Position numbers and translations under genes: made by a program. The notes beneath the pieces are model-generated. The model did no database searches and was not told where the DNA came from. It was given only the letters and a program-made list of their open reading frames with translations. This document shows positions 18,640 through 53,489 of a stretch of DNA of 54,769 nucleotides, piece after piece. Within the stretch, counting starts at the first letter, position 1; every line of letters begins with the position of its first letter. This stretch comes from Prorocentrum cordatum (taxonomy: Eukaryota): positions 62,001-116,769 of the forward strand of contig CAUYUJ010000212.1 of NCBI GenBank assembly GCA_963575745.1, read 5' to 3'.

Positions 18640-19555
18640 AGCGTGTTTCTACCGCTGCTGGCGGGAAAAACCGGGGGGGGTCACTACCGGTTCGAACCCC
18701 TCCCCCCCCCCCTGGAAAACCGGGGGGGTCACTACCGGTTCGAACCCCTCCCCCCCCCCCCAGTTCATCATGAAAAGGGGGGGGGGTCACTACCGGTTCG
18801 AACCCCTCCCCCCCCCCCCCTCGAACTCGAAAACCGGGGGGGGGTCGGTCACTACGGGTTCGAACCCCCCCCCCCCTCGAAAACCGATGGGTGGTGCGGA
18901 TAGTGGTGGGGACGGTGGTGGTGGGGACAGTGGTGAGGAGACAACGGGACAGTGGTGGGGACAGTGGGACAGTGGTGGGGACGGTAGTGGTGGGGACAAT
19001 GGTGAGGACAATGGTGGAAAAAGTGGGGACAGTGGGACAGTGGAGGGGACGGTGGTGGTGGGGACAGTGGTGTGGGGACAGTGGGAATGTGGTGGAAACA
19101 GTGGGACAGTGGAGGGTACAGTGGTGGTGGGGACAGTGGTGAAGGCGGTGGCGAGGACGGCGGTGGGAAAATGGGACAGAGGTATAGTGGGGACAGTGGT
19201 GGGGACAGTGGGGACAGTGGTGGGAACAGTGGGACAGCTCAGTGGGACAGCGGAGGAGTCAGTGGGACAGTGGGGACAGTGGGGATAGTCGTGGAGAAAG
19301 TTGGGAGAGTGGAACCGTGGTGGGAACAGTGGTGGGGACAGTGGGGGACAGTGCGACAGTGGTGGTGGCACTGGTGTGGACAGTAGGGGCGGTGGTGGAA
19401 CCAGTGGGGACAGTGGTGGTGAGGACAGTGGCGCTGGGAACAACAGTGGGGGATGTGGTGAGGACGGTGGTAGGGACCGGGAGTCGTTTGCTGGAGGTGA
19501 GAGGGGAGGTGGGGAGGGGTTCGAACCGGTACCCCCCCCCCTCCGGTTTTCGAGG
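18640..19555 (+). mobile_element. MITE-like element, copy 1 (runs into the assembly gap)
   Basis: Reverse-complement match to 33590-34445: AGCGTGTT(T)CTACCGCTGCTGGCGG end, TCACTACCGGTTCGAACC sub-repeats and GGGACAGTGGTG core. Confidence 0.8.
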
Positions 19556-19655
19556 NNNNNNNNNNNNNNNNNNNNNNNNNNNNNNNNNNNNNNNNNNNNN
19601 NNNNNNNNNNNNNNNNNNNNNNNNNNNNNNNNNNNNNNNNNNNNNNNNNNNNNNN
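19556..19655. other. Assembly gap (100 N)
   Basis: N run; true length unknown. Confidence 0.99.
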
Positions 19656-21345
19656 TTCTTCTTATTAGTATTATTCTTCTTCTTATTCTTATTATTCTTC
19701 TTATTCTTCTTCTTCTTCTTCTTCTTCTTCTTCGTCTTCTTCTTCTTCTTAGTATTATTATTCTTCTTCTTATTATTATTATTATTATTCTTCTTCTTAT
19801 TATTCTTCTTATTCTTCTTCTTATTCTTATTCTTCTTCTTCTTATTCTTATTATTATTCTTCGTCTTATTATTATTATTATTCGTCTTCTTCTTCTTATT
19901 ATTCTTCTTCTTATTCTTATTATTATGCTTCTTCTTCTTATTATTATTCTTCTTCTTCTTATTCTTCTTCTTATTCGTCTTCTTCTTATTCTTATTATTA
20001 TTATTCTTCTTCTTATTATTCTTCTTATTCTTCTTATTAGTCTTCTTCTTCTTCTTCTTCTTCTTATTATTCTTCTTTTTCTTCTTCTTCGTCTTCTTCT
20101 TCTTCTTATTCTTCTTCTTATTATTATTCTTCTTCTTCTTCTTCTTCTTCTTCGTCTTCTTTTTCTTCTTCTTCTTATTCTTCTTATTCGTCTTCTTATT
20201 ATTCTTCTTCTTATTCTTCTTATTCTTCTTCTTCTTCTTCTTCTTCTTATTATTATTCTTCTTATTTTTCTTCTTCTTCTTCTTATTCTTCTTATTCTTC
20301 TTCTTTTTCTTCTTCTTCTTCTTCTTCTTCTTCTTCTTCTTCTTCTTCTTCTTCTTCTTCTTCTTCTTCTTCTTCTTCTTCTTCTTCTTTTTCTTCTTCT
20401 TCTTCTTATTCTTCTTCTTCTTTCTTCTTCTTCTTCTCTTCTTTTCTTCTTTTCTCTCCTCCTCCTCCTCCTCCTCCTCTCCTCCTCCTCCTCTCCTCCT
20501 CCCTCCTCCTCCTCCTCCTCCTCCTCTCTCCTCCTCCTCCTCATCCTCCTCCTCCTCTCCTCCTCCTCCTCCTTCCTCTCCTCCTTCCTCATCCTCCTCC
20601 TCCTCCTCCTCCTCCTCCTCCTCCTCCTCCTCTCTCCTCCTCCTCCTCCTCTCCTCCTCTCCTCCTCATCCTCCTCCTCTCCTCCTCCTCCTCCTCCTCC
20701 TCCGCCTCTCCTCCTCCTCCTCTCCTCCTCCTCATCCTCCTCCTCCTCCTCATCCTCCTCCTCCTCCTCCTCCTCCTCTCCTCCTTCACCCTCCTCCTCC
20801 TCCTCCTCCTCTCCTTCCCTCCTCTTCCTCCTCTCCTCCTCCTCCTCTCCTTCGCTCCTGTCCTCCTCTACTCCTCCTCCTTCCTCCTCCTCCTCTCCTC
20901 CTCCTCCTCCTCCTCCTCCTCCTCTCCTCCTCCTCCTCCTCCTCCTCCTCCTCCTCCTCCTCCTCCTCCTCTCCTCTCCTCCTCCTCCTCTCCTCTCTCC
21001 TCCTCCTCCTCATCTCCTCCTCTCCTCCTCCTCCTCCTCCTCTCCTCCTCCTCCTCCTCCTCCCCTCCTCCTCCTCTCCTCTCCTCCTCCTCCTCCTCCT
21101 CCCTCCTCCTCCTCCTCCTCCTTCCTCCTTCCTCCTCCTCCTCCTCCTCTCCCCCTCCCTCCCTCCCCCCCCTCCCCTGCCCTCCCTCCCTCCCTCCCTC
21201 CCCGCTCCCCTCCCCCTCCCCCCTCCCCCCCCCTCTCCTCCCTCCCTTACCTCATCCCTCCCTCCCTCCCTCCCCCCCCTCCCTCCTCCCTCCCCTCCTC
21301 CTCCTCCTCCCCCTCCCCCTCTCCTCCTCCCTCCTCCCTCCCCCC
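19656..21345. repeat. (TTC/TTA)n followed by (CCT)n polypyrimidine tract, ~1.7 kb
   Basis: Directly visible. Confidence 0.97.
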
Positions 21346-21681: not shown

Positions 21682-21685
<4 letters not shown>

Positions 21686-21824
21686 GCGGCAGGAGAGGGG
21701 ACAGAATGTTTTCCCTTGAGCCACATGTGGCACGGACACGTACAAGATGGATCTCTGTCCATCGGTCCCCAGAGTGAAACACCAAAAGCTAAACCTACAC
21801 GTGAGATTATGGACCCCTGGAACA
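21682..21824 (-). repeat. 3' LTR (143 bp)
   Basis: Direct repeat of 31687-31829 with 2 substitutions. Confidence 0.97.
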
Positions 21825-21977
21825 TGGGTCCAACTTTCTCTAGGTTTAGCTGTCCCAAAACTCAATTCACCGGTCCGTGGCCACTGCCTGGCAGTGTCAA
21901 AACGACCTGCAAATGTTAAACGTGCGCAGCAGCAGAAAGATAGAGAGAGAGAGAGAGAGGCAGAACTAGAGAGCAGA

Positions 21978-24302
21978 CTATTGGAAAACAGATTCGGAGG
22001 ATGATAAAGGCGGAGGGAGAGAGGAGGAGGACGGGAGGACACTACCACCAGCAACCAGGCCAGGAGGAGCCCTCTGGTCCAGGTAGTCGAGCCATGCTAT
22101 CCAGGCGGGCTCTGACAGCATTCTTCTGGAGGCCGCCTGAGAGCGGTCTTTGCGCTCGGGCATGTCCTTCCGGCGGCCGACCTCTCGGGCCTCGCCCACC
22201 AGACTGAGCTTGCCGTTGGTCATCAAATCAAACAACGCGGCATTACACTTAGTCACGTCGTCCTTGGTCAAAGCGTCCACAGGCATACGGCCATGGGGTA
22301 TCCACCGTATCTTACCTCTGGCTCGTTCCAAGGACTCGCAAATGATGGCGAGGTCTAGAGCAGTACGCCTATCACGGGCCGAAGCGTTGCCTTCCTTCTG
22401 GAAGGTATCATAGATTGACTTGGCGTCCACCACGTGGACCTGTTGTTCCTGGGAACCCAAGCTACAATCGCGTCTTAAGACCGTAGTGAAGGGCCCTGAG
22501 GCCCGCACACAATCAGGCAGATCAACGTCCCTGAACACAACATCACGGTACAACACTTGAAGAAACTCGACTTCCGCCACGGCGGCCGAGAGAGCTTGAG
22601 TCTCCCCGGCTAGCGTCGAAGGCACCTTACGCCGTAGCTTACTGCTACGCCAACCGAGCACGGACGCTCTTACCACCTGATTATCGAGAACAGACTTGTC
22701 GGCAGCCAACACCATCCAGGCTCCCTGGGTGGGGTCGGCTGGGAGGCCATTGTCATCCTGGAGAGACTCTACCGAACCAACACCGCCGGCATCGGAAAAC
22801 GATATGAAAGACATACGCTCAGGGTCTAGCTGCCAGATCGTCAATCCTCGAGAGGCTGTTGCCCTCAGGTGCTTCACCAACTTGTTGGCACAAGACACGT
22901 CCGACACTGTCGGAGCCCGCAAACGACTGGCCAAAATACTTGCTACTCCGGCCGCTTCTGGCCGTGACTCTCGGCCGACCCAATTAAACTTGTAGACCAG
23001 AGAACGCAAAGCTTTGAACTCGGACGGCTCGAGAGGGGAATTCTTGACAGACAAGCGGCCCCGGGCCAGGGTCAGAAGACGGATTTCTTCCAGGATGTAC
23101 TTTTCCTGGTCGACAACGGCCTTACCGGGAAAAAAGGAAACACGCCTACCCGCAAAATCCACTGAGCCGGCATGACAGTCTCGATACTTCCCGAAACGGA
23201 AGCGGTCCTCTAGGATACCGCGAATCCACGCTCGGGCATCCGCATCCGCACTCCCGATAAAGAAATCGTCGACTTCCAGCAACATCATGTTCTGGATGGC
23301 CCCATCTGCTCGATACTTCAGCCACCAGCAGGGCTCCAGCAAACTTCTTTCGAACCCATGCTTTTCCAGATGGCCAACCACGGTGCGACGCCACGCTACT
23401 GGAGCATCGTCCAGCCCGTAAACGCTCACCAGCAATAGGATAAGGGATCCAGGCTCAACGTCGATACCCTCGCAAGGTTCAACATATATTTGGCCCTGGG
23501 ACCGCGTCATCGGATCTGACTGGGTGAAAGCGTTCTTGACATCCGCGATGTCTCCGAGCATCCTGAAATTGACCAGTACCTGAATGAACATCATAATAGA
23601 CGAGGTCTGGGGGGTGGGCGCATATACGGCGAGGGAGCCAGAGTCGGGATCCTTATGACCGTGCACGCACCACCTGGACTTCGCTTCGGGTTCCACGAAA
23701 GCCCCCTCAACTGGCTTCCATCGGCGCACCATTCGGCTGGATATGATCCTGCCCGGACAACGTTGCCGGATCTTCGCCGCCTGATTCGGAGGGATGACTC
23801 GGACACCCCCGGATTGCAGCATGGCTTTCCATTCTTTGTTGTCTGAAGCCTGAAACTTCTGACGCTCCTGAGGGGTGAGCCTCTTGAGGGTCACTTCTCC
23901 CCCGCGGCTAGCCGCAAAGGTGCCCCCGTCCTGAATGCTGTCGCCCACGGCCCCGGCAAACCCTTCGACGTTCCCAGGGACGACGGAGAGCCCGTCAATC
24001 GGCCCCGGGACCACGAAAAACTCGCTGGTGGCCTCTGCCTCGACTGTTCCCTCGGCTCCTCTGTTGCGATTTGGCGACCGTGACCTGGCTCGGGCTTCGA
24101 TGGCCTGAACACGCTCCTGGACAGACTGCTTCGGCTCGTCGCCGGCCCTGACAGGCCCCCGAGTCTCCGGCCCAGGTCCAGGGCCCCCAACACCGGAGGA
24201 GGAGGAGGCAATTCCACCGACGGGGTAAGGAGGGTAGGGGCCCGAGGAGGGTTCGGTCCTGGCTCTCTTTATCTCAGGAGGGGCGCTCCCGGCCCTCGCA
24301 GC
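21978..24302 (-). CDS. pol: pol C-terminus: reverse transcriptase plus RNase H (in frame with the upstream polyprotein after a single TGA)
   Basis: KSRWCVHGHKDPD, ADVKNAFTQ, YGLDDAPVAW, LEVDDF, FSDAG, AGETQA, VDAKS, VDALTK. I translated 24302-24012 and found no further stop. Confidence 0.93.
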   Translation of the reverse strand, partial: AARAGSAPPEIKRARTEPSSGPYPPYPVGGIASSSSGVGGPGPGPETRGPVRAGDEPKQSVQERVQAIEARARSRSPNRNRGAEGTVEAEATSEFFVVPGPIDGLSVVPGNVEGFAGAVGDSIQDGGTFAASRGGEVTLKRLTPQERQKFQASDNKEWKAMLQSGGVRVIPPNQAAKIRQRCPGRIISSRMVRRWKPVEGAFVEPEAKSRWCVHGHKDPDSGSLAVYAPTPQTSSIMMFIQVLVNFRMLGDIADVKNAFTQSDPMTRSQGQIYVEPCEGIDVEPGSLILLLVSVYGLDDAPVAWRRTVVGHLEKHGFERSLLEPCWWLKYRADGAIQNMMLLEVDDFFIGSADADARAWIRGILEDRFRFGKYRDCHAGSVDFAGRRVSFFPGKAVVDQEKYILEEIRLLTLARGRLSVKNSPLEPSEFKALRSLVYKFNWVGRESRPEAAGVASILASRLRAPTVSDVSCANKLVKHLRATASRGLTIWQLDPERMSFISFSDAGGVGSVESLQDDNGLPADPTQGAWMVLAADKSVLDNQVVRASVLGWRSSKLRRKVPSTLAGETQALSAAVAEVEFLQVLYRDVVFRDVDLPDCVRASGPFTTVLRRDCSLGSQEQQVHVVDAKSIYDTFQKEGNASARDRRTALDLAIICESLERARGKIRWIPHGRMPVDALTKDDVTKCNAALFDLMTNGKLSLVGEAREVGRRKDMPERKDRSQAASRRMLSEPAWIAWLDYLDQRAPPGLVAGGSVLPSSSSLPPPLSSSESVFQ

Positions 24303-27300
24303 TCAAATGCAAGCTGGGACGTCCTCAGGCTGGGTGAGGCGCCCCCTCGTCTTAGGTCTCGCCCCCTCTGGTGAAGACGGGGTGACAGGGGAAAGAGAAC
24401 TGGGAGACGCAGGCAAAGGAGGAGGAGCAGGAGCAGGTAAGGAAACAGGACGAGGAGAGGACGGAGGAGGGAGGAGTTCTGGACTCTCTTGATCCCCTGG
24501 CTCGACCTCGGCGGATCCTGAGCTAACTCCTCGAGACAACTGCCGACTGAGAGACGGCGTTGCCGACTCTTCTCTGTCTGAAGGAGCCAGCTCGGAAATA
24601 GAGGGCAGCCCGGTCCTGTCCGAGCCTGGTTGAGCTACAACCGATCCGGCACGAGAGAGAGACCCCCTGGGGGGCCTCCGAGGAAGCCCAAGAGTCCCGC
24701 CCACTGACGGGGGAGAGGGTCGATTCTCCGGTCCTTGCTCCTCGGCTGGCACTGGCCCAGCTCCGGGGACCCTTGGTTCTGAGTCGAGCTCGGCCTGTGC
24801 CGCCTCGTCCCAGGCACTCTCGGGAGGGGGGCCCTCGCGCTGAACGTCCACAGCGGTCACCCGCCTCGCCTGAGCCGAACGAAGCAGCTCCTGCCATCTA
24901 GGGTCTTCGGCCAATTGAAGGCCGTACTCTTCCTCAGGGCTAGCAAGCCTGACTTGCTCGGCTGAACATTTCCAGAGACGGGCCCGGACCGCCACCCACA
25001 CCGTGCCGCCCTCGGCAAGCACCACGACCCCGGGACCCGTCCAGCCGGCACGACGGCGCCCTAGGGCGTCGGCCCTGGACGATATTCTGGTGAAATGCCT
25101 CCAGACGAAGACCCACTGGCCGGGGGTAAATCTCTTGGTCCCAGGGGTCCTCGCCCGGGCTGCTCGGGACAGCTTGTCTCGGGCCGTGGCTTCCATGGCA
25201 AGCCTACGGGCCGCCGCTCGGATAGCGTGGGCCCTGGCAAACTCGGCTCCCGCCTCGTCCTGCTCTGAGGAGGGGCTCGCGACATCCTGCCACCCGGGCA
25301 AAGCCCGTCGATCGTCGGACAAGAGCTCATGCGGAAGGCGCGGGATTTCTCCAAAAACCAACTGGAGAGGTGAAAAGCCACCTCGATGCCAAAATCGGTT
25401 CTTATGCGCCACCAGCTCAAACACCAGATCATCCAGCTCCTGGAGTGATGAGGGAAAGGACGTCCCGGACTCTAGCTCAATACGGACTCGGTCCTTGACC
25501 CAGCCACCGTGTCTCTCCACTCGTCCGTTCTGCCAGGGACTGTCCGCGTCGCAGACATGATGACAAACTCCCCACTGTTCCAAGCCTCGGGCGAACCGAG
25601 CTCCAAACTCCGAGCCCCCATCCGAGATGATCAGATGTGGCGCGCCCAACGGTCGGACCCAGGACCTCAGAAACTCGGACCAGACAGCGGCCGACGTCGC
25701 GGCCTCGACCCGGGTGACGACCTGCAGGTTCGACCCGTGGTCGACGATGTTGAGATAGGGATACGTCGTACCTTGAAAGTCGAGGTAGAAGAGATCAACC
25801 CCCACGATGTGATTAAAACGAAAGGTCCTGGGCAGAGCAACCCGACGATGGGCCCCCGACTGCGATCGTTCCGCACATTCCGAACAAACAAAATGCTGAC
25901 GCACCCATCTCACCAAGTGCTGTTTGGTGCCGCCAGCTCGAAGAACCCGAAGAAATTTTCGTTTGTCGGGATGGCCCATGTTGCAGTGCAACTTGTATAT
26001 TAACCGTTTCTCGTCCTCATTGGGCTGAGGATCGGGCTTCCCAGACACATCTCCCCTCGTTCTGTTCTGAAAGGGTGGTCGGGTCTCGGGCTCGTCGTCG
26101 CTTTCGTCCGAACCTTCGGGCTCGCCTTCGCCGCCAATTGCTTCCCCGGCCTCCGCAGCCTCGCCGGGGACTCCTTCCGCCAACTCCGCCCAGGAAGACT
26201 GCCTGGCCCTGGGGGCTCCGGACCAATGTTCGGCGACAGCCCTGGCGACAGTGCGCACGAACAAAGGGGGGTAACATGCCGCTTTGGTAGTAACCGAGCC
26301 TCCCTCCAGAACAGCGTGCTTGTGTTCCCCCGTGCAGAGGTGACCGTCTAAGAGCCGCAACACCTCGGGGTGGTTGGACAAAATTCCCGTGGGTTTCTTA
26401 TTAGGCCCCCTGTCGTCCACCCTCATTCCAAACTGGCACATGTCGAGCCGGATTCGTCGAACTCCCGGGAGGTCCCACACGCACTTGACAACATGCGTTC
26501 CCCAGGAGGAAGCGTAAAGAGAGTGTTCGAACGCAAAGAACCGTCCGTGTCGGACCTGATAGTCAGCTATCCTCATGCAAAGGAAAAGGTCTCGGAGGCC
26601 GTCCCGCACTAGTGACCTCCAGTCCCCAGGGTCCATCCGATCCCGATTCAACCTATTGATCGCGGAAAAGGCCCGACACTCGGAACACAGCCAGATCATT
26701 TCGGGTCGATCGGTCCTGATCGTCTCCCAGAGGCGATCGACTTCCGTTCTTTGAGCGGCGCCCCAACCGACCTTGAGGTCCCACGAGGCCTCCTCTCCCA
26801 CAGGGGCCCCAATTTTCTTAACGGCAGGAGCAATCCTAGGAGGGGAGAACACTTCCATGAAAGCCACCTTGGATCGTCCCGGAGTGACCGACGCGTCGAC
26901 AGGAAAGGTCCCTGGGAGGGCTCCAGTTGCCCTGGCTGCTGCCTCGCCGAGAGCCTTTCTCACTTGAGATCCGCAAGCGACCTCATGGTCGTCGTTCATC
27001 CAATCTCCGTCGAGCCACTCGGGCCCGACCAGGAGTCTCTGCACAGTGGGAGGGTAGGTAGGAGAATGGGCTGTCGACGGGCTCTCTGGTGAGCCCCTGT
27101 CGGAGACGGCAGCGCAGGCGCAGTCCAAACGACTGCACCTTGAACTCTGCTGCTGCTGGCCCGAAGCCCCTCGGCTCGGGCCGGCGACTGAAGAACGAGG
27201 AGTGACGTCCAAAGACGACGCTACATCTCGTCGTCCTTGTCGCTCTCGTACAGAATCTCCCAAGGCGTTGTCACTGCCGTGGCCCAGACCTGCCGCGTGC

Positions 27301-30300
27301 CCTCGGGCTCCGGCGAGGAAGCACCCGCCTGTGAGCTGTCCGGTTCCTGCAACGGAAGCTCTTGGTTCGCTCCGACAGCGTTGGCCACCTGCACGAGCCC
27401 CATCACCGCCGTCCCAATCTCCACGGTCATCTGCGCCATCTGACCCATTGACTCCTCGATGTTGCCGACCGACAGCGACAGGGTGCTCATCTGCTCCGTC
27501 AGGTAGTCGAGGGACTCCCCCATCGGCTCCAGTGCCTCCAGGGTACGACGGAGCCGAATGAGCGCTTGATGGATCTGCTGCAGGCCCTCCTCCAGCTGAC
27601 TGCTGGTCTGAAACTGTGCTTGACTGGCATATTGTGCAATCTGCTCGACCACCTCTTGCACCTTTCCGAGGGATCGAATCCCCTCGGGGATCTGGTGCAG
27701 CTGCCACTGTAGTGCGTTGAGGTATCCGTTCAGGTCGTTGGCCGTCTGCAGTGCTGCCGCCCCTGTCTGAAACACAGGATTCTCCTGCATGATCTGGACC
27801 GTCCGCTCGGCAGCAGCTGCCGCTCGTCTGGCCGCCTCTGCTGCGGACTCCGGCCTCGCTGCCGGCCCGCCGTCCTGCTCGCCACCGCTGCCGCGTGGCA
27901 CCCATGTGAGCTTGTAGCCGCAGAACTTGCACTTCGTGCCCGAGCCGTACTGATTGCCGTACGATGTGGCCTGCGAGTGGTTGCAGTTGTTCACCAGCTT
28001 GGGCGGGGGCGGCTTGACTGCGATCGATCTCGGCTTCAGCGGTGCCGCCACCCGCCGGGCTGGGATGGCTGCTGCTGCTGCCGCCGAAATCGGAGCTGCA
28101 GCTGCTGCTGCAGTTGTCATTTCTCCGTCGTCGCTCTGGTTCGTGACCAGCTGCATCGATGCCTGATCCTCGTCGCGGCCGTGGTGGATCCCCGGCGCTG
28201 CCCCCGAGGCACCTGCACTCGGCGTCCCTCCGTGGCCCAGCAGTCGTGCCGACCTCGCCTTCGGTGGACCTGGAAACTGCCCCTGGACTCCGGCCATCCA
28301 TGGCATCGGCGACGCTGCTGGCTGAACGCTGGAGGCTGCTGCTGGATTCGGCCCCGGCGGAGGGTCCGACGGCGGAGGGGGCGCCTGAAGCAGGTACTGC
28401 TGGTACTCCATCGTCAGGATGGGCGCCCCGTCCATCAGGTAGCCGGCCACTCCTCGGTCGGGCACTCCATCGGGTCCGGCGGCCGCCATCGCCCGGGCCC
28501 AAGTCATCAGCTGGGCGGGCAGCTGGTTGGGCACTCCAGGATGGGAAGGCGGTCCGCTCGGCGTCGTAGTGGCCTCCGCCAGCGCCTCCACCGGCGTCTC
28601 GACCGCCTGGCTCAGCACCGCCCTGGCAGCATCTCCTCGACCGTCGCTGCCGTCGCCTCTGCTGTTGCCGCCTCCGGGCGGCTGAGTGGTGGACCCGCGG
28701 AACTGGGGAGCTCCCTGCACTGAGAGGATCCCCCTCAGGATAAACATGGAAATCGTTATGAACTTCATCATTGCGCCGGACGATGCCGGCAGGACGCTGC
28801 GATCGTCGGCTCAACTGTCGATGCCGGGAAAGCCACGAGCAAAGACTCGAGCCAAAAGAGGCCACGGACAACACATACACGAGAGCCCTTGGGCCCCAGC
28901 TGCCGATGAGGTCGAGAGCTCCCTTGCCGATGGGCTCGAGAGCCCTGCCCCGCCCTCCGTTGCTGTTGTCCAAGACCTTAGTGCGCCCCAAAGATCCTGA
29001 GCCCGTGACCTGTTCGAAGCGGGCCCGCTGAGCCCAACACACGATGAATAGGCAGACCACGACTGCGACGATTGAGACGACCGAGTAGCCCAGGCACGGC
29101 GATCCCCTCGGATCCCTGCTTGGCGTTCTGCTCGAAAACCCCCTTGGTCTAGACCCCGCACGACTTGACCCGGACCCTGCTCGCCTCGACTTAGCTCTAA
29201 ACCGAAGGATGGAGATGATGAGGTGAGGGATGTACTGCGTCACAGTTCCATCTGCCAGCATCTTCGGAGGCTTCTCATTGCCAAGGGTGAATGACCCCTC
29301 CGTCAGAAAAGGATAGCGCTGGAGGGCCGACGCTGGGACTGTCGGCGGCTCCTCCAGGGAACGCACGATCTCTACCATCCTGTGCCCGGAACCCAGGCGT
29401 GTCATGGCCACGGTCGTGCGCAGGGTGCCGGAGCGAAGCCTGTTCCTCGGTAAATCAATCACGCTCTCTAGAAAGTCCAGAAGATTGACGCTCAAAATGT
29501 GAGGGACAGCCTCTCCGAGCACAGTGGTGTCTACGATGCCAAAGACGCCACCTAAACACAACGGAAAAAGTATAGCGCTCACGACCTTGGCCTGGCCTCC
29601 AACTCCGTGGGCCCCACGAAGGTGCGTCCGATGTTCAGCAGGAATCTCGACGCACCTGAGGCCGTGGGTCGCGAGCGCCTCGGACTCCCTGTTGAGAGCC
29701 TCCACGCCTACCAGATCAGTCCCCGCCCCGGGGTCGACCAGGCCCTGGGTCGACGAGGCCGCCAGAAAGATCGACCCTGACGCGATCTCCTCCTCGATCC
29801 CGCGCCACGCCGGCGCTGCCCACATGTCGTCACTGCCGAACGCCACCCCGTCGAACATGTAGGACGAGGCCTTCCTGATGGGAGTCTTCTTGACGGAGAC
29901 CTCCCGCTTGACAGCGTCCTTCTTGGTGCTGCTGACGTTGGGGCACTCACGCCCCCAATGGCCCTTCTCGTGGCACAGCTTGCACTTGGTGACCTTCATC
30001 AGCTGCTCCTGAGTGAGGAAGCGTCGCCTGCCCTGAGGAGGCCGGTGTCCTGCTCCTCCAGCTCCGCCTCCACGCTCGTCACGTTCTCGTCGCTGGCGAC
30101 CTCCTCCTCGCCCGGCTGGCCGAGAAGGATGAGAGGCCCTGCCACTGCCTCGACCTCGGGAGCCAAAATATTCTCGATCGCGTCGAGCTGCGCGCTTGAG
30201 GTCCTTGTTCTGCTTCCAGGACCTGTTGTTCGTCAGCTCGGCCAGCACCAGCTCGGCGTCGTCCTCCTCGACGTCCATGTCATCGATCTCCGCGAGGAGG

Positions 30301-31547
30301 GCCGCCACGTCCTCTTCCTCGAGCTCGTCCGACTCGTCGGCTCCCTCGTCGTAGTCATCCTCTTCGTCCTCGACCACCTGGTAGTTGGCATCCTCCGACC
30401 TACCTTCACACCGACCGAGGTTAGGAGGGGAGGAGGAAGGCTGAAAAGCACCAGCGTCCGAGCGAGCGCTCGGCCCTAGGTCTTCAGACGCTGCCGCTAG
30501 CATGCTGCCTGTCCCGGCTTTGCCGGGAAGCAGGCGCTCAGTGCCGGCTGATGAATCAAGCTGGCGCAGTGCCCACTTCACGCTGCTGTAGGTCAGGTCT
30601 CCGCGAGTGAGCGTGCGCAAGTTCTGCACGCCCTGCTGAGTGAGATTGGCCCCTTCCTCTAGGAAGAGACCCTTGAGCTTGTCGGACATCCACAAGTCGT
30701 GGCCCTCCGCGTCGATGAACTCTGCTCCACGACGACTCACGTACTGGGTGAGCGTCTCCTTGGAGTCGCGGACGGCCTCGTATAATGCTTTTCGTCCTGC
30801 CCGTCGTAGCTCGTCTCCTTCGCGCTCCCCGATCATCAAGTCCATGCGACTGAGGAGCGTCTGCAACCATGAGGATGCGGTGAGCTCCTTGTCCGGGATG
30901 TCCTCGAATTTGGCCTGCATCGTCCAGTCGAAGAGCCGCATGAACTTCTCCGACCTCCTCCAGACCGCTACGTCGGTGTTGTCGTTCCAGCGCCGAATGG
31001 CTCGGCGCCATTGTCTATAGTGGGCCCAGCCGGGCCACGCTGGAGGGTCCGAAAAATCACCTCGGCCCCCAGTCCATTGGCCTGGCCACCAGTTGCTGTT
31101 CCAGCTCGAGCCCCAGTCCTGGTGCTCGTCCCACTTCTGGTCCTCCTTCACGTCGTCCTTGTCGCCGGGCGGGCGCCGCTGTCCTGAATCTCCTGCTGCT
31201 TCTCCGCTGCCCACCTCGGCGGCTGGTCTGGTTCTGCTGCTGCTCCACGGGTCGGCCCCCGTGCCGTACCATGGGTCGGCCACCGTCGGTGCTGTCTCTG
31301 GCGGTGGCCGCTGCTGCTGTTGGCCAAAATGGCCGAGCGCCCGCACGGTTTCCTGGACCGCGGACTGTATTGCCCGAGTGAGCGTCTCCTGATCAATCGT
31401 CGTCGCCGCCGCGACCGTAGAGCCTGATGCTGCTGCTCCCGCCGTCGACCCCTCAGCTCCTCGGGCTGCCAGGACGGCGAAGGTCTCCTCTCGTCCATCG
31501 CCTCCTGGGGCGATTGGCGGCGGCTGCCGCTCACCATCTGCGGGCAT
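24303..31547 (-). CDS. gag-pol: gag-PR-spacer-DNMT-integrase polyprotein (likely ATG at 31547, first in-frame ATG downstream of the PBS)
   Basis: Zinc knuckle CKLCHEKGHWGREC (~29943-29985), protease GLVDPGAG (~29720-29750), integrase HHCC (LHCNMGHP..CSEC) and D,D,E (GVDLF, SDGGSEF, NGRVER). Confidence 0.92.
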   Translation of the reverse strand: MPADGERQPPPIAPGGDGREETFAVLAARGAEGSTAGAAASGSTVAAATTIDQETLTRAIQSAVQETVRALGHFGQQQQRPPPETAPTVADPWYGTGADPWSSSRTRPAAEVGSGEAAGDSGQRRPPGDKDDVKEDQKWDEHQDWGSSWNSNWWPGQWTGGRGDFSDPPAWPGWAHYRQWRRAIRRWNDNTDVAVWRRSEKFMRLFDWTMQAKFEDIPDKELTASSWLQTLLSRMDLMIGEREGDELRRAGRKALYEAVRDSKETLTQYVSRRGAEFIDAEGHDLWMSDKLKGLFLEEGANLTQQGVQNLRTLTRGDLTYSSVKWALRQLDSSAGTERLLPGKAGTGSMLAAASEDLGPSARSDAGAFQPSSSPPNLGRCEGRSEDANYQVVEDEEDDYDEGADESDELEEEDVAALLAEIDDMDVEEDDAELVLAELTNNRSWKQNKDLKRAARRDREYFGSRGRGSGRASHPSRPAGRGGGRQRRERDERGGGAGGAGHRPPQGRRRFLTQEQLMKVTKCKLCHEKGHWGRECPNVSSTKKDAVKREVSVKKTPIRKASSYMFDGVAFGSDDMWAAPAWRGIEEEIASGSIFLAASSTQGLVDPGAGTDLVGVEALNRESEALATHGLRCVEIPAEHRTHLRGAHGVGGQAKVVSAILFPLCLGGVFGIVDTTVLGEAVPHILSVNLLDFLESVIDLPRNRLRSGTLRTTVAMTRLGSGHRMVEIVRSLEEPPTVPASALQRYPFLTEGSFTLGNEKPPKMLADGTVTQYIPHLIISILRFRAKSRRAGSGSSRAGSRPRGFSSRTPSRDPRGSPCLGYSVVSIVAVVVCLFIVCWAQRARFEQVTGSGSLGRTKVLDNSNGGRGRALEPIGKGALDLIGSWGPRALVYVLSVASFGSSLCSWLSRHRQLSRRSQRPAGIVRRNDEVHNDFHVYPEGDPLSAGSSPVPRVHHSAARRRQQQRRRQRRSRRCCQGGAEPGGRDAGGGAGGGHYDAERTAFPSWSAQPAARPADDLGPGDGGRRTRWSARPRSGRLPDGRGAHPDDGVPAVPASGAPSAVGPSAGAESSSSLQRSASSVADAMDGRSPGAVSRSTEGEVGTTAGPRRDAECRCLGGSAGDPPRPRRGSGIDAAGHEPERRRRNDNCSSSCSSDFGGSSSSHPSPAGGGTAEAEIDRSQAAPAQAGEQLQPLAGHIVRQSVRLGHEVQVLRLQAHMGATRQRWRAGRRAGSEAGVRSRGGQTSGSCCRADGPDHAGESCVSDRGGSTADGQRPERIPQRTTVAAAPDPRGDSIPRKGARGGRADCTICQSSTVSDQQSAGGGPAADPSSAHSAPSYPGGTGADGGVPRLPDGADEHPVAVGRQHRGVNGSDGADDRGDWDGGDGARAGGQRCRSEPRASVAGTGQLTGGCFLAGARGHAAGLGHGSDNALGDSVRERQGRRDVASSLDVTPRSSVAGPSRGASGQQQQSSRCSRLDCACAAVSDRGSPESPSTAHSPTYPPTVQRLLVGPEWLDGDWMNDDHEVACGSQVRKALGEAAARATGALPGTFPVDASVTPGRSKVAFMEVFSPPRIAPAVKKIGAPVGEEASWDLKVGWGAAQRTEVDRLWETIRTDRPEMIWLCSECRAFSAINRLNRDRMDPGDWRSLVRDGLRDLFLCMRIADYQVRHGRFFAFEHSLYASSWGTHVVKCVWDLPGVRRIRLDMCQFGMRVDDRGPNKKPTGILSNHPEVLRLLDGHLCTGEHKHAVLEGGSVTTKAACYPPLFVRTVARAVAEHWSGAPRARQSSWAELAEGVPGEAAEAGEAIGGEGEPEGSDESDDEPETRPPFQNRTRGDVSGKPDPQPNEDEKRLIYKLHCNMGHPDKRKFLRVLRAGGTKQHLVRWVRQHFVCSECAERSQSGAHRRVALPRTFRFNHIVGVDLFYLDFQGTTYPYLNIVDHGSNLQVVTRVEAATSAAVWSEFLRSWVRPLGAPHLIISDGGSEFGARFARGLEQWGVCHHVCDADSPWQNGRVERHGGWVKDRVRIELESGTSFPSSLQELDDLVFELVAHKNRFWHRGGFSPLQLVFGEIPRLPHELLSDDRRALPGWQDVASPSSEQDEAGAEFARAHAIRAAARRLAMEATARDKLSRAARARTPGTKRFTPGQWVFVWRHFTRISSRADALGRRRAGWTGPGVVVLAEGGTVWVAVRARLWKCSAEQVRLASPEEEYGLQLAEDPRWQELLRSAQARRVTAVDVQREGPPPESAWDEAAQAELDSEPRVPGAGPVPAEEQGPENRPSPPSVGGTLGLPRRPPRGSLSRAGSVVAQPGSDRTGLPSISELAPSDREESATPSLSRQLSRGVSSGSAEVEPGDQESPELLPPPSSPRPVSLPAPAPPPLPASPSSLSPVTPSSPEGARPKTRGRLTQPEDVPACI
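25350..26000 (-). other. Integrase domain (HHCC plus DDE core)
   Basis: KLHCNMGHP, CSEC, VGVDLF, IISDGGSEF, PWQNGRVERHGG, GFSPLQLVFG. Confidence 0.92.
26240..26870 (-). other. C5 cytosine DNA methyltransferase-like domain within the polyprotein
   Basis: FMEVFSPPR (motif I position), WDLKVGW, WLCSECRAFS (motif IV position), FAFEHS..SSW (VI), DMCQFG, KKPT (VIII), AACYPP. The layout matches DNMT domains of dinoflagellate retrotransposons as I recall them. Confidence 0.8.
27221..28771 (-). CDS. Nested 516-aa ORF in the +1 frame of the polyprotein: signal-peptide-like N-terminus, CxH...CxxC motif, long heptad coiled coil; function unknown
   Basis: ATG start, protein-like composition while the polyprotein frame here is R/G/S/A-rich filler; first ATG after an SL-like motif; NCNHSQATSYGNQYGSGTKCKFCG. 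Confidence 0.8.
   Translation of the reverse strand: MMKFITISMFILRGILSVQGAPQFRGSTTQPPGGGNSRGDGSDGRGDAARAVLSQAVETPVEALAEATTTPSGPPSHPGVPNQLPAQLMTWARAMAAAGPDGVPDRGVAGYLMDGAPILTMEYQQYLLQAPPPPSDPPPGPNPAAASSVQPAASPMPWMAGVQGQFPGPPKARSARLLGHGGTPSAGASGAAPGIHHGRDEDQASMQLVTNQSDDGEMTTAAAAAAPISAAAAAAIPARRVAAPLKPRSIAVKPPPPKLVNNCNHSQATSYGNQYGSGTKCKFCGYKLTWVPRGSGGEQDGGPAARPESAAEAARRAAAAAERTVQIMQENPVFQTGAAALQTANDLNGYLNALQWQLHQIPEGIRSLGKVQEVVEQIAQYASQAQFQTSSQLEEGLQQIHQALIRLRRTLEALEPMGESLDYLTEQMSTLSLSVGNIEESMGQMAQMTVEIGTAVMGLVQVANAVGANQELPLQEPDSSQAGASSPEPEGTRQVWATAVTTPWEILYESDKDDEM
28846..28868 (-). other. Internal DinoSL-like motif upstream of the nested ORF
   Basis: TCCGTGGCCTCTTTTGGCTCGAG versus TCCGTAGCCATTTTGGCTCAAG: 19 of 22 SL bases match with a 1-nt insertion. 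Confidence 0.85.
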
Positions 31548-31673
31548 CTCTCTGCCGTGGATCCCACGCTGCTCAGTGGTCAGAGCGAAGCCTGGCTCCG
31601 GGGCGCGCAAGCGCAGAGCGGCCTGGCCGTCACAGCCAGCCTCTCGCGCCCATGGCCTCCGGGCCGGACCCCG

Positions 31674-31684
31674 CTCCGCTACCA
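31674..31684 (-). promoter_or_regulatory. Primer-binding site, probably for the tRNA-iMet 3' end
   Basis: TGGTAGCGGAG begins 2 nt after the 5' LTR; similar to the TGGTAGCAGAG complement of eukaryotic initiator tRNA. Confidence 0.8.
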
Positions 31685-31686
31685 AC

Positions 31687-31829
31687 TGTGGCAGCAGGAG
31701 AGGGGACAGAATGTTTTCCCTTGAGCCACATGTGGCACGGACACGTACAAGATGGATCTCTGTCCATCGGTCCCCAGAGTGAAACACCAAAAGCTAAACC
31801 TATACGTGAGATTATGGACCCCTGGAACA
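31687..31829 (-). repeat. 5' LTR (143 bp)
   Basis: TGTTCC...GCCACA on the minus strand; followed by the PBS. Confidence 0.97.
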
Positions 31830-33593: not shown

Positions 33594-34445
33594 TGATCCA
33601 CCGCCGCTTTACTGTGGAAAATTGCCGCCCTTTTCCTCCGGAACCCGGGGGTCCCCCCCCCCCTCCGAAAATCCCCCCCCCTGCTGGACCCCCCCCCCCT
33701 TCCCCCCCGGCAACCCCCCCCCTTCCCCTAACCCCCCCCCCTCGAACTCGAAAACCGGGGGGGGTCACTACCAGTTCGAACCCCCCCACCCCGTCGAAAA
33801 CCGGAGGGGGGGGTCACTACTGGTTCGAACCACTGAGCTGTCCCACTGCTCCCACCACTGTCCCCACTGTCCCCACTGTCCCCACCACTGTCCCCACTGT
33901 ACCTCTGTCCCATTGTCACACCGCCGTCCTCGCCACCGCCTTCACTACTGTCCCCACCACCAATGTATCCTCCACTGTCCTACTGTTTCCACCACATTCC
34001 CACTGTCCCCACACCACTGTCTCCACCACCACCGTCCCCACCACTGTCCCACTGTCCCCAAAGTTCCCACCATTGTCCTCACCATTGTCCCCACCACTAC
34101 CGTCCCCACCACCGTCCCACTGTCCCCACCACTGTCCCGCTGTCCCCGCACCACTGTCCCCACCACCACCGTCCCCACCACTGTCCGCACCCCCCCTCGC
34201 TTTTCGAGGGGGGGGTGGGGGGGGGCGGGGGGGTTCGAACCGGTAGTGACCCCCCCTGGTTTTCGAGTTCGAAGGGGGGGGGGGTTCGAACCGGTAGTGA
34301 CCCCCCCCCTTTTCATGATGAACTGGGGGGGGGGGAAGGGGTTCGAACTGGTAGTGCCCCCCCCTGGTTTCCTGGACGGGGGGGGAAGGGTTCGAACCGG
34401 TAGTAACTCCCCCCGGGATTTCCGCCAGCAGCGGTAGAACACGCT
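33590..34445 (-). mobile_element. MITE-like element, copy 2, with imperfect ~19-bp terminal inverted repeats, inserted in (TA)n/(GA)n
   Basis: Left AGCGTGATCCACCGCCGCT versus right-end reverse complement AGCGTGTTCTACCGCTGCT; no credible coding content. Confidence 0.8.
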
Positions 34446-53467: not shown

Positions 53468-53489
53468 TACGTAGCCATTTGGGCTCAAG
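53468..53489 (+). other. Relic dinoflagellate spliced leader
   Basis: TACGTAGCCATTTGGGCTCAAG versus TCCGTAGCCATTTTGGCTCAAG: 20 of 22 match. Confidence 0.93.

Follow-up and report, generated by a model that had tools for sequence, protein, structure and literature searches.

A second gene appears to be nested in the polyprotein frame of an LTR retrotransposon within the window, the whole 54,769-nt stretch of dinoflagellate DNA analysed here. With a probability of about 60%, this nested frame, termed B, is a true dual-coding accessory gene of ~1.55 kb with a spliced leader (SL)-linked subgenomic mRNA of its own. A gene nested in a polyprotein frame is, by analogy, best known from hepatitis B virus.

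The retrotransposon and its architecture

Judged from its sequence, the LTR retrotransposon in the window is of Ty1/copia type, young and essentially intact. The host is a Prorocentrum-like dinoflagellate, and the best protein matches of the element carry Prorocentrum cordatum annotation. Its features are:

31687..31829 (-), 5' LTR, 143 nt, TG...CA; direct repeat with 21682-21824, ends read directly
31669..31684 (-), primer-binding-site-like TGGTAGCGGAGCGGGG, 2 nt past the 5' LTR; read directly
24303..31790 (-), polyprotein frame A, 2495 codons open; ORF list
29943..29984 (-), Gag zinc knuckle CKLCHEKGHWGREC; Pfam zf-CCHC_2
29310..30035 (-), zinc-knuckle-to-protease region, A residues 586-827; D-P-G-A-G at 29721-29735
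29016..29105 (-), transmembrane-like segment of frame A (..CLGYSVVSIVAVVVCLFIVCWA..), strongly hydrophobic; Kyte-Doolittle
26874..29309 (-), spacer or insertion in frame A, A residues 828-1639, ~810 aa; alignment with P0031-P0034
25989..26873 (-), X domain (E-V-F-S-P-P-R ... F-A-F-E-H-S ...), weakly DNMT-like; conserved in P0031-P0034
24666..25988 (-), integrase region (HCNMGH...); aligns with the integrase part of P0031-P0034
21978..24302 (-), RT-RNase H part, in the frame of A, after a single in-frame TGA; Pfam RVT_2
21682..21824 (-), 3' LTR; direct repeat with the 5' LTR, ends read directly

The two LTRs agree at 141 of 143 bases (2 differences, a 98.6-99% direct repeat), so this copy is recent and near its active parent. 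A primer-binding site with a TGG start is normally found at such a position in LTR elements. Frame A, whose first Met is at 31547, is ended by the in-frame TGA at 24303-24305. The Gag zinc knuckle matches Pfam zf-CCHC_2 at E=4.6e-4 and 20.4 bits, under the cut-off of 27, and the region between knuckle and protease shares 21-23% identity with the Symbiodiniaceae copia-like polyproteins P0031-P0034. Pfam gives weak matches alone for the integrase region (rve_3, E=0.095; DDE_Tnp_IS240, E=0.049), and RVT_2 matches the RT-RNase H part, which also aligns with P0031-P0034, at 48.7 bits vs a cut-off of 31.6. The transmembrane-like segment (Kyte-Doolittle 19-residue mean up to 2.75) lies upstream of the SL-like 23-mer described below. 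This organization is like that of the Symbiodiniaceae Ty1-copia-like SmTCL, which is LTR-flanked with integrase followed by RT and RNase H in the cited part of its description (PMC5776459). Identity of the polyprotein with Breviolum-cluster copia polyproteins is ~28%.

The X domain shares 27-32% identity with P0031-P0034 in the alignment. The initial annotation had called the element DNMT-carrying, which claims too much: Pfam and PDB sequence searches with the X domain returned no match, and the likeness comes from weak structure matches. In a Foldseek comparison based on a low-confidence structure model, DNMT1/3/3L or Dnmt2-type chains made up 41 of the 42 matches listed (ranks 1-48), with E from 1.2e-3 to 3.7e-2 and all of the first 39 among them; the nearest named Atlas cluster is PF00145 (0.84). 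On this modelling, the candidate DNMT identity of the X domain is only weakly supported. In the cited part of PMC5890265, dinoflagellate DNMT domains are placed in LINE and DIRS elements (SymbioLINE/SymbioDIRS), and Symbiodinium Copia is described without DNMT; unlike in the DNMT-bearing SymbioLINE/SymbioDIRS, the X domain is missed by Pfam and weakly DNMT-like by structure.

A nested frame with a coding signature

27221..28771 (-), nested ORF B, 516 aa + TAG, frame A+1; ORF list

As initially annotated, B is a 516-aa same-strand ORF in the +1 frame of the polyprotein, and it lies wholly inside the 2495-codon ORF. It begins MMKFITISMFILRGILSVQG, opening with ATG ATG, and the P/A-rich stretch, the CNH..YGNQYGSGTKCKFCG motif and, past a helical C-terminal part, the acidic tail ..WEILYESDKDDEM can all be read in its translation. 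The B region is the G/A/R/S-rich part of the spacer between the protease and the X domain, and the polyprotein frame across it is the filler that had been described (G 17%, A 13%, R 13%, S 11%). Recognisable domains on either side of the spacer share frame A. In P0032, P0033 and P0034 the protease match stops ~40-75 aa ahead of the X-domain match; the ~810-aa insertion is absent from three of the four distant Symbiodiniaceae relatives, and P0031 has an unrelated spacer of its own (~590 aa) at the same place.

The openness of both frames is non-random, as had been proposed. Synonymous shuffling of B introduced a mean of 8.81 stops into A, vs 0 observed, and left A stop-free in 0 of 5000 shuffles (analytic estimate for A stop-free given B, P(0) ~3e-5), and shuffling of A introduced a mean of 6.07 stops into B, again vs 0 observed (P(0)=0.0002); because the locus was chosen for its two open frames, these P values bear a look-elsewhere penalty. 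The third sense frame, serving as control, has 18 stops vs 17.2 expected. When eight windows are slid along the polyprotein, the seven not centred on B show 5-18 stops per 517 codons in the two alternative frames.

GC content is highest at the third and lowest at the second codon position of B (28790-27291). Codon frequencies correlate with those of the rest of the element at r=0.59 for B and 0.38 for A, and RSCU values at 0.61 and 0.16. In the C-terminal half the codon-usage correlation is 0.62 for B and 0.27 for A, which by the criterion given in the cited part of PMC3744397 marks B as the older frame; the N-terminal half (0.45 and 0.42) gives B no advantage. Frame A over B appears to be constrained mainly to stay stop-free.

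Homologues and other copies

The nested frame belongs to a conserved protein family, in keeping with the protein-like character first ascribed to it: 24 representative proteins, each standing for a homologue cluster, match B at E<=1e-3, 12 of them reaching E<=1e-10, with 31-96% identity and motifs in common. E values are as low as 3.5e-66, and several homologues are gene models of P. cordatum. P0001, a close gene model, starts at B's Met and is without B residues ~120-192, 217-258 and 403-417, and P0002 is missing part of helix 2 as well as the latter half of the zinc motif. These gaps are either real deletions or 'introns' drawn round frame breaks, so B is perhaps not intact in every copy.

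For the element family, 213 contigs at 80-100% identity were aligned in sequencing run X1; the runs behind the contigs of other copies are probably DNA. Relative to these contigs, 11 of 19 substitutions in the overlap are silent in B (P=0.009 against an expected fraction of 0.295) and 4 of 19 in A (expected 0.30), the 19 being the sites listed as best supported, beside 345 further ones. In one contig, diverged by 47 differences over 264 nt, the four indels form two compensating pairs, 28719/28723 and 28836/28845, so that the frames are kept.

It is extremely improbable that GC-rich sequence leaves one of the frames open by mere chance and without meaning. Regional GC of 63-68% lowers stop frequency generally and the locus was selected for looking odd, but both shuffle tests and the stops of the third frame are contrary to coincidence, as are the homologues of B, its confident fold and the fact that frame A is exactly the one in which the protease and X-integrase domains on either side are read. 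This reading is already largely refuted.

SL-like motifs and proposed expression of B

28846..28868 (-), DinoSL-like 23-mer TCCGTGGCCTCTTTTGGCTCGAG; 3 substitutions and 1 insertion vs DCCGTAGCCATTTTGGCTCAAG
28772..28845 (-), 5'UTR-like stretch, 74 nt, without ATG; direct reading
31720..31741 (-), SL-like 22-mer TCCGTGCCACATGTGGCTCAAG in the 5' LTR; edit distance 4 to DinoSL, sense strand
21715..21736 (-), SL-like 22-mer TCCGTGCCACATGTGGCTCAAG, copy in the 3' LTR; same motif as in the 5' LTR

The DinoSL-like 23-mer lies 74 nt upstream of B, and B's ATG is the first after it, as originally noted. The motif is 4 edits from the consensus as printed in the cited part of PMC12014239, has lost the internal TAG acceptor, which reads TGG, and was not recovered by an ungapped 3-mismatch DinoSL search. 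Over the whole window and both strands, four DinoSL matches at edit distance <=4 were found vs 0.105 expected, three on the element's sense strand (both LTR copies counted) and one elsewhere. In the same passages, DinoSL relics are marks of reverse-transcribed, trans-spliced mRNAs, and the TTTT box of a relic may promote transcription (PMC12014239). B is like DinoSL-relic retrogenes in having an intronless ORF and a short 5'UTR immediately preceded by SL-like DNA. Unlike in these retrogenes, the relic is full-length but degenerate, is known here from DNA alone, and sits inside a retrotransposon polyprotein ORF, being itself part of frame A.

To judge from these motifs, B probably has a subgenomic mRNA of its own, linked to an SL, from which it is expressed. 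In frame A, a ribosome would read a disordered G/A/R/S-rich spacer joining Gag-protease to X-integrase-RT. In frame A+1, the same DNA would encode B as an accessory protein belonging to the element family. Translation of B would begin at its own ATG, on a subgenomic mRNA whose 5' end would fall at ~28846, through spliced-leader trans-splicing or SL-relic-driven initiation. The 23-mer could be what remains of a B mRNA that carried an SL cap, was reverse-transcribed and then entered the element by recombination, perhaps when the gene was first captured or perhaps during later recycling. From these data we infer translation of the two frames, a subgenomic mRNA, cDNA capture or recycling as the origin, and the function of B.

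Retroelements often set protein ratios by frameshifting, with +1 shifts in Ty1 and Ty3. B could then have no mRNA of its own: ribosomes shifting +1 between the B-frame stop TGA (28811-28813) and the conserved part would make a Gag-PR-B protein ending at B's TAG, and others, staying in frame A, would make integrase and RT, serving as a gag/pol-ratio device. This is quite unlikely, for although the geometry permits it (A to B is +1, and B is open from 28810) and the N-terminus of B is weakly signal-like, the shift window is just ~40 nt, B begins ATG ATG at the first ATG past the SL-like motif, P0001 starts at the same Met, and the B homologue P0013 has an N-terminus more clearly hydrophobic than B's.

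It is very unlikely that B is a passenger, that is, an SL-bearing host mRNA retroposed into the element, in a region spliced from the polyprotein mRNA so that A is untranslated there and its openness is leftover or chance. Zero stops in A vs ~9 expected (0 of 5000 shuffles) would be unexplained without translation in A, many copies at 80-100% identity keep the B-synonymous bias, and no region-skipping splice was seen among the joints listed (27336 to 27681; 26950 to 27079), in runs that are probably DNA; these points weigh against the SL-like relic on the 5' side, the coding-like codon usage of B and the status of the region as an insertion that three of four relatives lack, all of which fit a retrogene.

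Origin of the overlap

A fresh captured cDNA would bring ~9 stops into frame A, so one-step capture is hard to survive. These stops are avoided if B was overprinted de novo, hepatitis B virus being the model: the disordered spacer would have come first, B would have arisen and grown inside it, and the SL-like motif would be a later B-mRNA recycling footprint or a coincidence. This alternative concerns origin only, leaving dual coding unchanged, and it is conceivable though unlikely. The G/A/R/S/P-rich spacer has few +1 stops (~6 per 517 codons), so an ORF could grow there; the P0031 spacer indicates that spacers arise at this place; the N-terminal half of B is disordered, with codon usage no better than that of A; and in the cited part of PMC5604429 the hepatitis B envelope ORF is fully nested within the replicase ORF. 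However, the structured C-terminal half of B is nearer the element's other genes in codon usage than A is, the B family is well folded and extends to members of only 31-34% identity, and the SL-like motif, placed exactly on B's 5' side, fits an mRNA-derived piece.

As in the hepadnavirus P/S overlap, a reverse-transcribing element has a complete gene, here B, lying out of frame within its replicase or polyprotein ORF. In hepadnaviruses the envelope ORF overlies the replicase spacer domain, long regarded as a dispensable tether according to the cited part of PMC9093120; here B overlies a compositionally simple spacer and is the conserved frame. Unlike a hepadnavirus, the element is a dinoflagellate LTR retrotransposon of Ty1/copia type, in which codon usage points to the nested frame rather than the polyprotein as the older one, an SL-like relic marks the 5' side of B, and B has neither a transmembrane segment nor envelope-protein resemblance. 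The initial statement that the arrangement is undescribed was too strong in view of the hepatitis B envelope ORF in the replicase ORF (PMC5604429) and CERV of Cer1 (PMC10309623), as presented in the passages cited. Those cited for SmTCL and SymbioLINE/SymbioDIRS make no mention of a nested gene (PMC5776459, PMC5890265).

Predicted structure and role of B

27896..27985 (-), zinc-ribbon-like three-stranded hairpin, B residues 263-292; homologue motif and model
27368..27844 (-), four-helix bundle, B residues 310-468; AlphaFold

The predicted layout of B would comprise a hydrophobic N-terminus, a long P/A-rich disordered arm, the zinc-ribbon-like hairpin, the four-helix bundle and an acidic tail. 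The N-terminal half is disordered in the model. The N-terminus had been called signal-peptide-like; it is moderately hydrophobic (best Kyte-Doolittle 19-residue mean 1.39), which makes it weakly signal-like and nothing stronger. The hairpin motif, C-x-H ... YGNQYGSGTKC-x2-C ... LTWVP, is common to homologues and may bind metal; its strands lie at 268-292, and the 10-residue blocks across 271-290 have mean pLDDT of 92 and 91 (AlphaFold). The supposed heptad-repeat region is helical, but is modelled as four helices (residues 310-468) in a bundle, with pLDDT of 73-88 for the helices from residue 311 onward. Structure matches of the bundle are generic or designed four-helix bundles only (Z <=14.8), and structure comparison gave no resemblance of B to envelope proteins. 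The env-like product first envisaged is not supported, given the generic fold and a hydropathy below 1.6 in every 19-residue window of the whole protein, which leaves no transmembrane segment.

Like other extra ORFs of LTR retrotransposons, B is lineage-specific, additional and of unknown function, as such ORFs are characterized in the cited part of PMC10309623. Unlike env-like ORFs placed after pol in that account, it lies between protease and integrase and is fully overlapped. The same passages describe CERV, a 517-aa accessory protein of the C. elegans LTR retrotransposon Cer1 (Ty3/gypsy), as the product of a spliced mRNA in which one exon is out of the gag frame (PMC10309623). Unlike CERV, with five exons and cis-splicing, B is one uninterrupted 516-codon ORF for which SL trans-splicing is proposed. 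Likened by description, CERV would be the closest functional analogy for B, in regulating element RNA or assembly. Altogether, the most likely role of B is intracellular, in regulation or assembly of the element rather than in an envelope, and would resemble that of CERV or of retroviral accessory proteins.

A copia element with an enlarged polyprotein

The minus-strand element at 21682-31829 shows the LTR pair, the reverse transcriptase family and the domain order of Ty1/copia LTR retrotransposons. Its two LTRs, of 143 nt each, have TG..CA ends and are equal at 141 of 143 bases, a PBS-like site that begins with TGG lies 2 bases past the 5' LTR, and the reverse transcriptase (RT) is of the copia type (Pfam RVT_2, PF07727, 48.7 bits vs a cut-off of 31.6). 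Four polyprotein relatives were found, all of them copia polyproteins of the Symbiodiniaceae type (P0031-P0034; 28-29% identity), and BLASTP against them gives the block order protease, integrase, RT and RNase H. The polyprotein frame, here called frame A, also holds a CCHC knuckle scoring below the Pfam cut-off and a D-P-G-A-G protease motif, followed by a spacer, a conserved part termed the X domain and an integrase region with a weak Pfam match (rve_3, E=0.095); RT and RNase H continue in the same frame past one in-frame TGA. The closest public proteins are annotated as Prorocentrum cordatum. The main features are the following.

31687-31829 and 21682-21824, minus strand: the two LTRs
29016-29105, minus strand: transmembrane-like stretch in frame A
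28846-28868, minus strand: motif resembling the dinoflagellate spliced leader (DinoSL)
27221-28771, minus strand: ORF B, 516 aa, nested in frame A
25989-26873, minus strand: X domain, between spacer and integrase
24303-24305, minus strand: in-frame TGA (ATT TGA GCT)

The TGA is the sole break in a polyprotein frame of ~3270 codons, where it separates integrase from RT-RNase H, and it may be a copy-specific lesion or a read-through stop. The GC content of the window, ~0.6, is in line with the 59.7% given for the P. cordatum genome in the available portion of PMC11453091, and a second copy of the element is absent elsewhere within the window. The element sits inside a (GA)n tract, and its flanks agree over 4 or 6 nt and not 5, which makes the target-site duplication ambiguous. 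It appears to be embedded in a larger repeat landscape: G/C-homopolymer-flanked units with GGTCACTACCGGTTCGAACCCC, some of them inverted, lie on either side of it at 18648-18876 and 33732-34419 (repeat families D11 and D13), and long arrays with a 9-12-nt period occupy 19587-21291.

Compared with its relatives, the polyprotein is enlarged at one place. From the protease match to the X-domain match the gap is ~40-75 residues in three of the four relatives and 812 residues here (frame A residues 828-1639), and P0031 has an unrelated spacer of ~590 residues in the same place. Judged against these sequences, the 812-residue spacer is an insertion. It consists, in order, of ~148 codons with a hydrophobic segment, the SL-like motif, a 74-nt leader, ORF B and ~116 codons with a coding-like codon usage in frame A (r=0.59). 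The transmembrane-like stretch ..CLGYSVVSIVAVVVCLFIVCWA.. directly upstream of the SL-like motif, with hydropathy up to 2.75, is unusual for a Gag-Pol polyprotein.

Two frames open over the same codons

The initial annotation had proposed that a 516-aa ORF is nested in the polyprotein frame, and the ORF is found exactly as claimed. It starts with MMKFITISMFILRGILSVQG, lies in phase A+1 and is enclosed by 2495 codons of frame A (24303-31790, minus strand), and the first stop of its own frame upstream of the ATG is a TGA at 28811-28813. Both frames are open beyond chance, in each direction. When the synonymous codons of B were permuted, a check suggested with the original claim, frame A acquired a mean of 8.81 stops vs 0 observed, and 0 of 5000 permutations were stop-free. 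In the reciprocal shuffle, with the frame-A peptide kept, B acquired a mean of 6.07 stops vs 0 observed. The analytic P(0) for frame A given B is ~3e-5 and P(0) in the reciprocal shuffle is 0.0002, values to be read in the light of the locus having been chosen for looking odd. Pure chance is essentially excluded as an explanation of the double opening.

The third sense frame, used as a control, has 18 stops vs 17.2 expected. Alternative frames in other coding parts of the element have 5-18 stops per 517 codons, so avoidance of stop-like trinucleotides is not the cause. A general avoidance of codon junctions joining T to A or T to GA was also considered and rejected, as the same relative frame elsewhere in the element has 10-18 stops per 517 codons.

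The open frame A is precisely the one that links the protease to the X-integrase part. Two other readings are less likely: a fusion made by +1 frameshifting, and a passenger that is spliced out. B-fused forms are absent among the longer proteins of 904-2580 aa, which is weak evidence.

Information carried by frame B

In the overlap, the information is carried by frame B. Over 28790-27291, GC by codon position follows the coding pattern (third position highest, second lowest) in the B reading alone. Measured against the non-overlapping coding parts of the element, codon frequencies correlate at r=0.59 for B and 0.38 for A, and relative synonymous codon usage (RSCU) at 0.61 and 0.16. The codon correlation is 0.62 for B vs 0.27 for A across residues 251-516, and is alike for the two frames across residues 1-250 (0.45 vs 0.42). 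In the frame-A peptide across the overlap, G accounts for 17% of residues, A and R for 13% each and S for 11%.

Copies of the family point to the same frame. Contigs from four coded sequencing runs were compared with the element over 26500-29500, and run X1 alone provided 213 contigs at 80-100% likeness, hence many copies. The substitution test used a list of the 40 best-supported substitutions (345 more lie outside this list), with 19 in the overlap. In B, eleven of these 19 are synonymous, each at a third codon position (expected fraction 0.295, P=0.009), whereas 4 of the 19 are synonymous in A, with no excess over the expected fraction of 0.30. In a single diverged contig, four indels offset one another as two nearby pairs. 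For frame A, these paired indels and the avoidance of stops are the only signs of constraint among the copies.

In run X5 (coded organism B), two short contigs are identical to 27561-27758 and 27762-27912 of ORF B, which has no bearing on expression, and the remaining matches are unrelated low-complexity sequence. Searches of metagenome contigs returned 237 pattern matches with B as query and 196 with alignment A3, and a search of viral contigs with A3 returned 92; none of these was confirmed by tblastn.

Family and predicted fold of protein B

A HMMER search of 1.84 billion representatives detected 24 homologues of B at E<=1e-3, of which 12 reach <=1e-10 and 5 reach <=1e-30, with identities of 31-96%. 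They come from P. cordatum gene models, from EukProt EP00959 and from a few unnamed short contigs (NCBI, ENA, JGI/IMG). The family members have in common KPPPP, C-x-H...YGNQ(H/Y)GSG-x-KC-x2-CG...L-x-W-(I/V)-P, a helix of the pattern AA-x-AAR-x-AA, the motifs LQWQL...PEG-x-RALG and EGLQQI, and W-E-I/V-L/V within an acidic tail. Parts of B are missing from the gene models P0001 and P0002, which may mean that some copies are broken. EP00959 is labelled Pyramimonas sp. CCMP1952 and holds peptides 89-96% identical to B (P0003, P0005 and others) together with many distant members; these similarities suggest that this data set with a green-alga label contains dinoflagellate sequences.

The AlphaFold model of B, built with the family alignment, has a mean pLDDT of 55.8, which is low owing to disorder in residues 12-84, 97-119 and 142-252. 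Confidence is higher for a three-stranded hairpin, where mean pLDDT is 92 and 91 over residues 271-290, and for four helices in residues 310-468, at 73-88. In a fold search (VIA-align wide), the helical domain matched nothing more specific than generic or designed four-helix bundles; Z went up to 14.8, a range common for helical models. Among viral structures (BFVD) no match was found at E<=1e-3 and TM did not exceed 0.19, Pfam yielded only sub-threshold coiled-coil families, and the ESM Atlas gave no usable match. The Baculovirus PEP C-terminal domain (PF04513) reached 23.6 bits on B against a gathering cut-off of 38, and it appears sub-threshold in 6 of 26 family members, beside assorted coiled-coil families. 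The label 'BLOC-1-related complex subunit 7', given to the UniRef cluster, was rejected for lack of Pfam support, as BLOC1_2 scores below threshold and in just 2 of 26 members. By these searches, B is a member of no described family.

It had also been suggested that the product could be env-like. The N-terminal helix of B (residues 3-16) has a hydropathy of 1.39, and no 19-residue window in the protein reaches a mean hydropathy of 1.6 (maximum 1.51), so that the C-terminal membrane anchor of class I fusion-type envelopes is not seen. With no membrane-like window and no viral structure match, and with structural matches limited to generic helical bundles, an envelope role is not supported. The acidic C-terminal tail (27224-27262, residues ~504-516) contains W-E-I-L, and W-E-I-L or W-E-V-V is found in the homologues P0001, P0006 and P0014; we take W-E-I-L to resemble the Atg8-interacting LIR/AIM motif W-x-x-L.

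Spliced-leader-like motifs

According to the available text of PMC12014239, the consensus DinoSL is DCCGTAGCCATTTTGGCTCAAG, and genomic relics of it come from SL-capped mRNAs that were reverse-transcribed and then re-integrated. A relic is defined there by a transcript in which a fresh DinoSL is followed by the relic; the fresh SL replaces the first seven relic bases through an internal AG, and the TTTT box of the relic might promote transcription (PMC12014239, same portion). Matches to DinoSL at an edit distance of <=4 number four in the window, three of them on the sense strand of the element, vs a chance level of 0.105 matches per window, with 19 of 200 first-order Markov simulations containing any. 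Besides the motif upstream of B, these are the following.

31720-31741 and 21715-21736, minus strand: SL-like 22-mer TCCGTGCCACATGTGGCTCAAG, one per LTR, edit distance 4 from DinoSL
53468-53489, plus strand: near-canonical relic TACGTAGCCATTTGGGCTCAAG, 2 substitutions from DinoSL

The initial annotation had placed a DinoSL-like 23-mer, TCCGTGGCCTCTTTTGGCTCGAG, upstream of the nested ORF. Its position and general likeness hold, with 19 of 22 matches, a distance of 74 nt to the ORF and no ATG between, but it is a loose match that includes one inserted base. It differs from the consensus by 3 substitutions and this insertion, the 15-nt relic core CCATTTTGGCTCAAG is present in it with 3 edits, and an ungapped search at <=3 mismatches misses it. 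Its internal TAG is now TGG, and its terminal AG is retained.

In LTR coordinates the 22-mer spans 89-110, which leaves 33 nt to the LTR end. It could mark the start of R, in which case the LTR would once have received a copy of an SL-capped genomic RNA. The plus-strand relic probably tags a retrogene close to the window end.

The X domain and the DNMT label

The element had been described as DNMT-carrying, a label for which a weak structural likeness was found but no sequence-level match: no Pfam family was detected at E<=0.1 over 25902-27101 and no PDB chain at E<=1. The X domain is conserved in the Symbiodiniaceae polyproteins, with invariant residues that include E-x-F/Y-S-P-P-R and F-x-F-E-H. 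Its model is of low confidence (pLDDT 48.6, pTM 0.53) and has a beta-alpha-beta core. Foldseek with this model gave DNMT1/3A/3B/3L or Dnmt2-type structures in 41 of the 42 rows listed, including all of the first 39, at E values of 1.2e-3 to 3.7e-2 and TM of 0.26-0.33. The nearest named cluster in the Atlas is PF00145, at 0.84, rated as a lead.

Hallmarks of C5 methyltransferases are a SAM loop rich in glycine (motif I), a Pro-Cys pair (motif IV) and E-N-V (motif VI). Compared by eye with these motifs, the X columns contain no glycine loop, a conserved C81 with no preceding Pro in this copy, and F-x-F-E-H. The DNMT label for the X domain is a lead and not a finding. In dinoflagellates, DNMT domains are described in LINE and DIRS elements and Copia elements are described without them, as far as the available part of PMC5890265 goes; a DNMT-like X domain, if real, would qualify this published claim.

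Possible origin and expression of the nested gene

The favored explanation, held to be more likely than not, is true dual coding: frame A would be translated across the insertion as a disordered tether whose sole need is to stay open, and frame B would encode a functional accessory protein. The simplest expression route would be a subgenomic RNA with its 5' end at the SL-like motif, on which translation of B begins at the ATG of B itself, and this motif may be a trace left when an SL-capped mRNA of B was reverse-copied into the element. The chief difficulty for capture in one step is that foreign cDNA would bring ~9 stops into frame A, so a serious rival is that B arose inside a spacer that already existed, in the manner of hepatitis B virus.

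A bolder reading, to which we assign a probability of roughly 30%, is that the SL system of the host is built into the life cycle of this retroelement. The SL-derived sequence in the LTR would mark the 5' end of the genomic RNA, at the start of R, the internal one would mark the 5' end of a trans-spliced subgenomic B mRNA, and B would represent a retroelement accessory protein family new to the literature, with all 516 codons overprinted on a polyprotein spacer.

Implications for dinoflagellate retroelements

Long same-strand gene overlaps are textbook features of compact viruses. To our knowledge, they are hardly documented in eukaryotic transposons, which face no obvious size limit. The open-access papers searched do not describe any complete gene nested in a Ty1/copia polyprotein, or in that of a dinoflagellate LTR element, nor SL relics inside dinoflagellate LTR elements. 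The nearest parallels are the hepadnaviruses, in which the replicase ORF encloses the envelope ORF (available portions of PMC5604429 and PMC9093120), and CERV of Cer1 (available portion of PMC10309623).

The overlap described here extends over 516 codons, with statistical support in both directions, a conserved and foldable nested protein and many copies in which selection could be followed per frame. Its biology could show, in a natural setting, how a polyprotein copes with a second gene running through its coding sequence. The B homologues among the gene models of a published dinoflagellate annotation mean that accessory genes of transposons have passed through repeat masking into that annotation, and the X domain is flagged as a possibly DNMT-like, unrecognized domain common to dinoflagellate copia elements. 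Retrogenes make up >20% of dinoflagellate genes according to the available portion of PMC11453091, and the SL-like motifs bear on how dinoflagellate retroelements interplay with SL trans-splicing, which is relevant to this very large retrogene load. If the SL system is indeed built into the life cycle of the element, the element would be the first retroelement with an SL-dependent strategy of subgenomic expression, and the overlap would be among the longest dual-coding stretches known in eukaryotic mobile elements.
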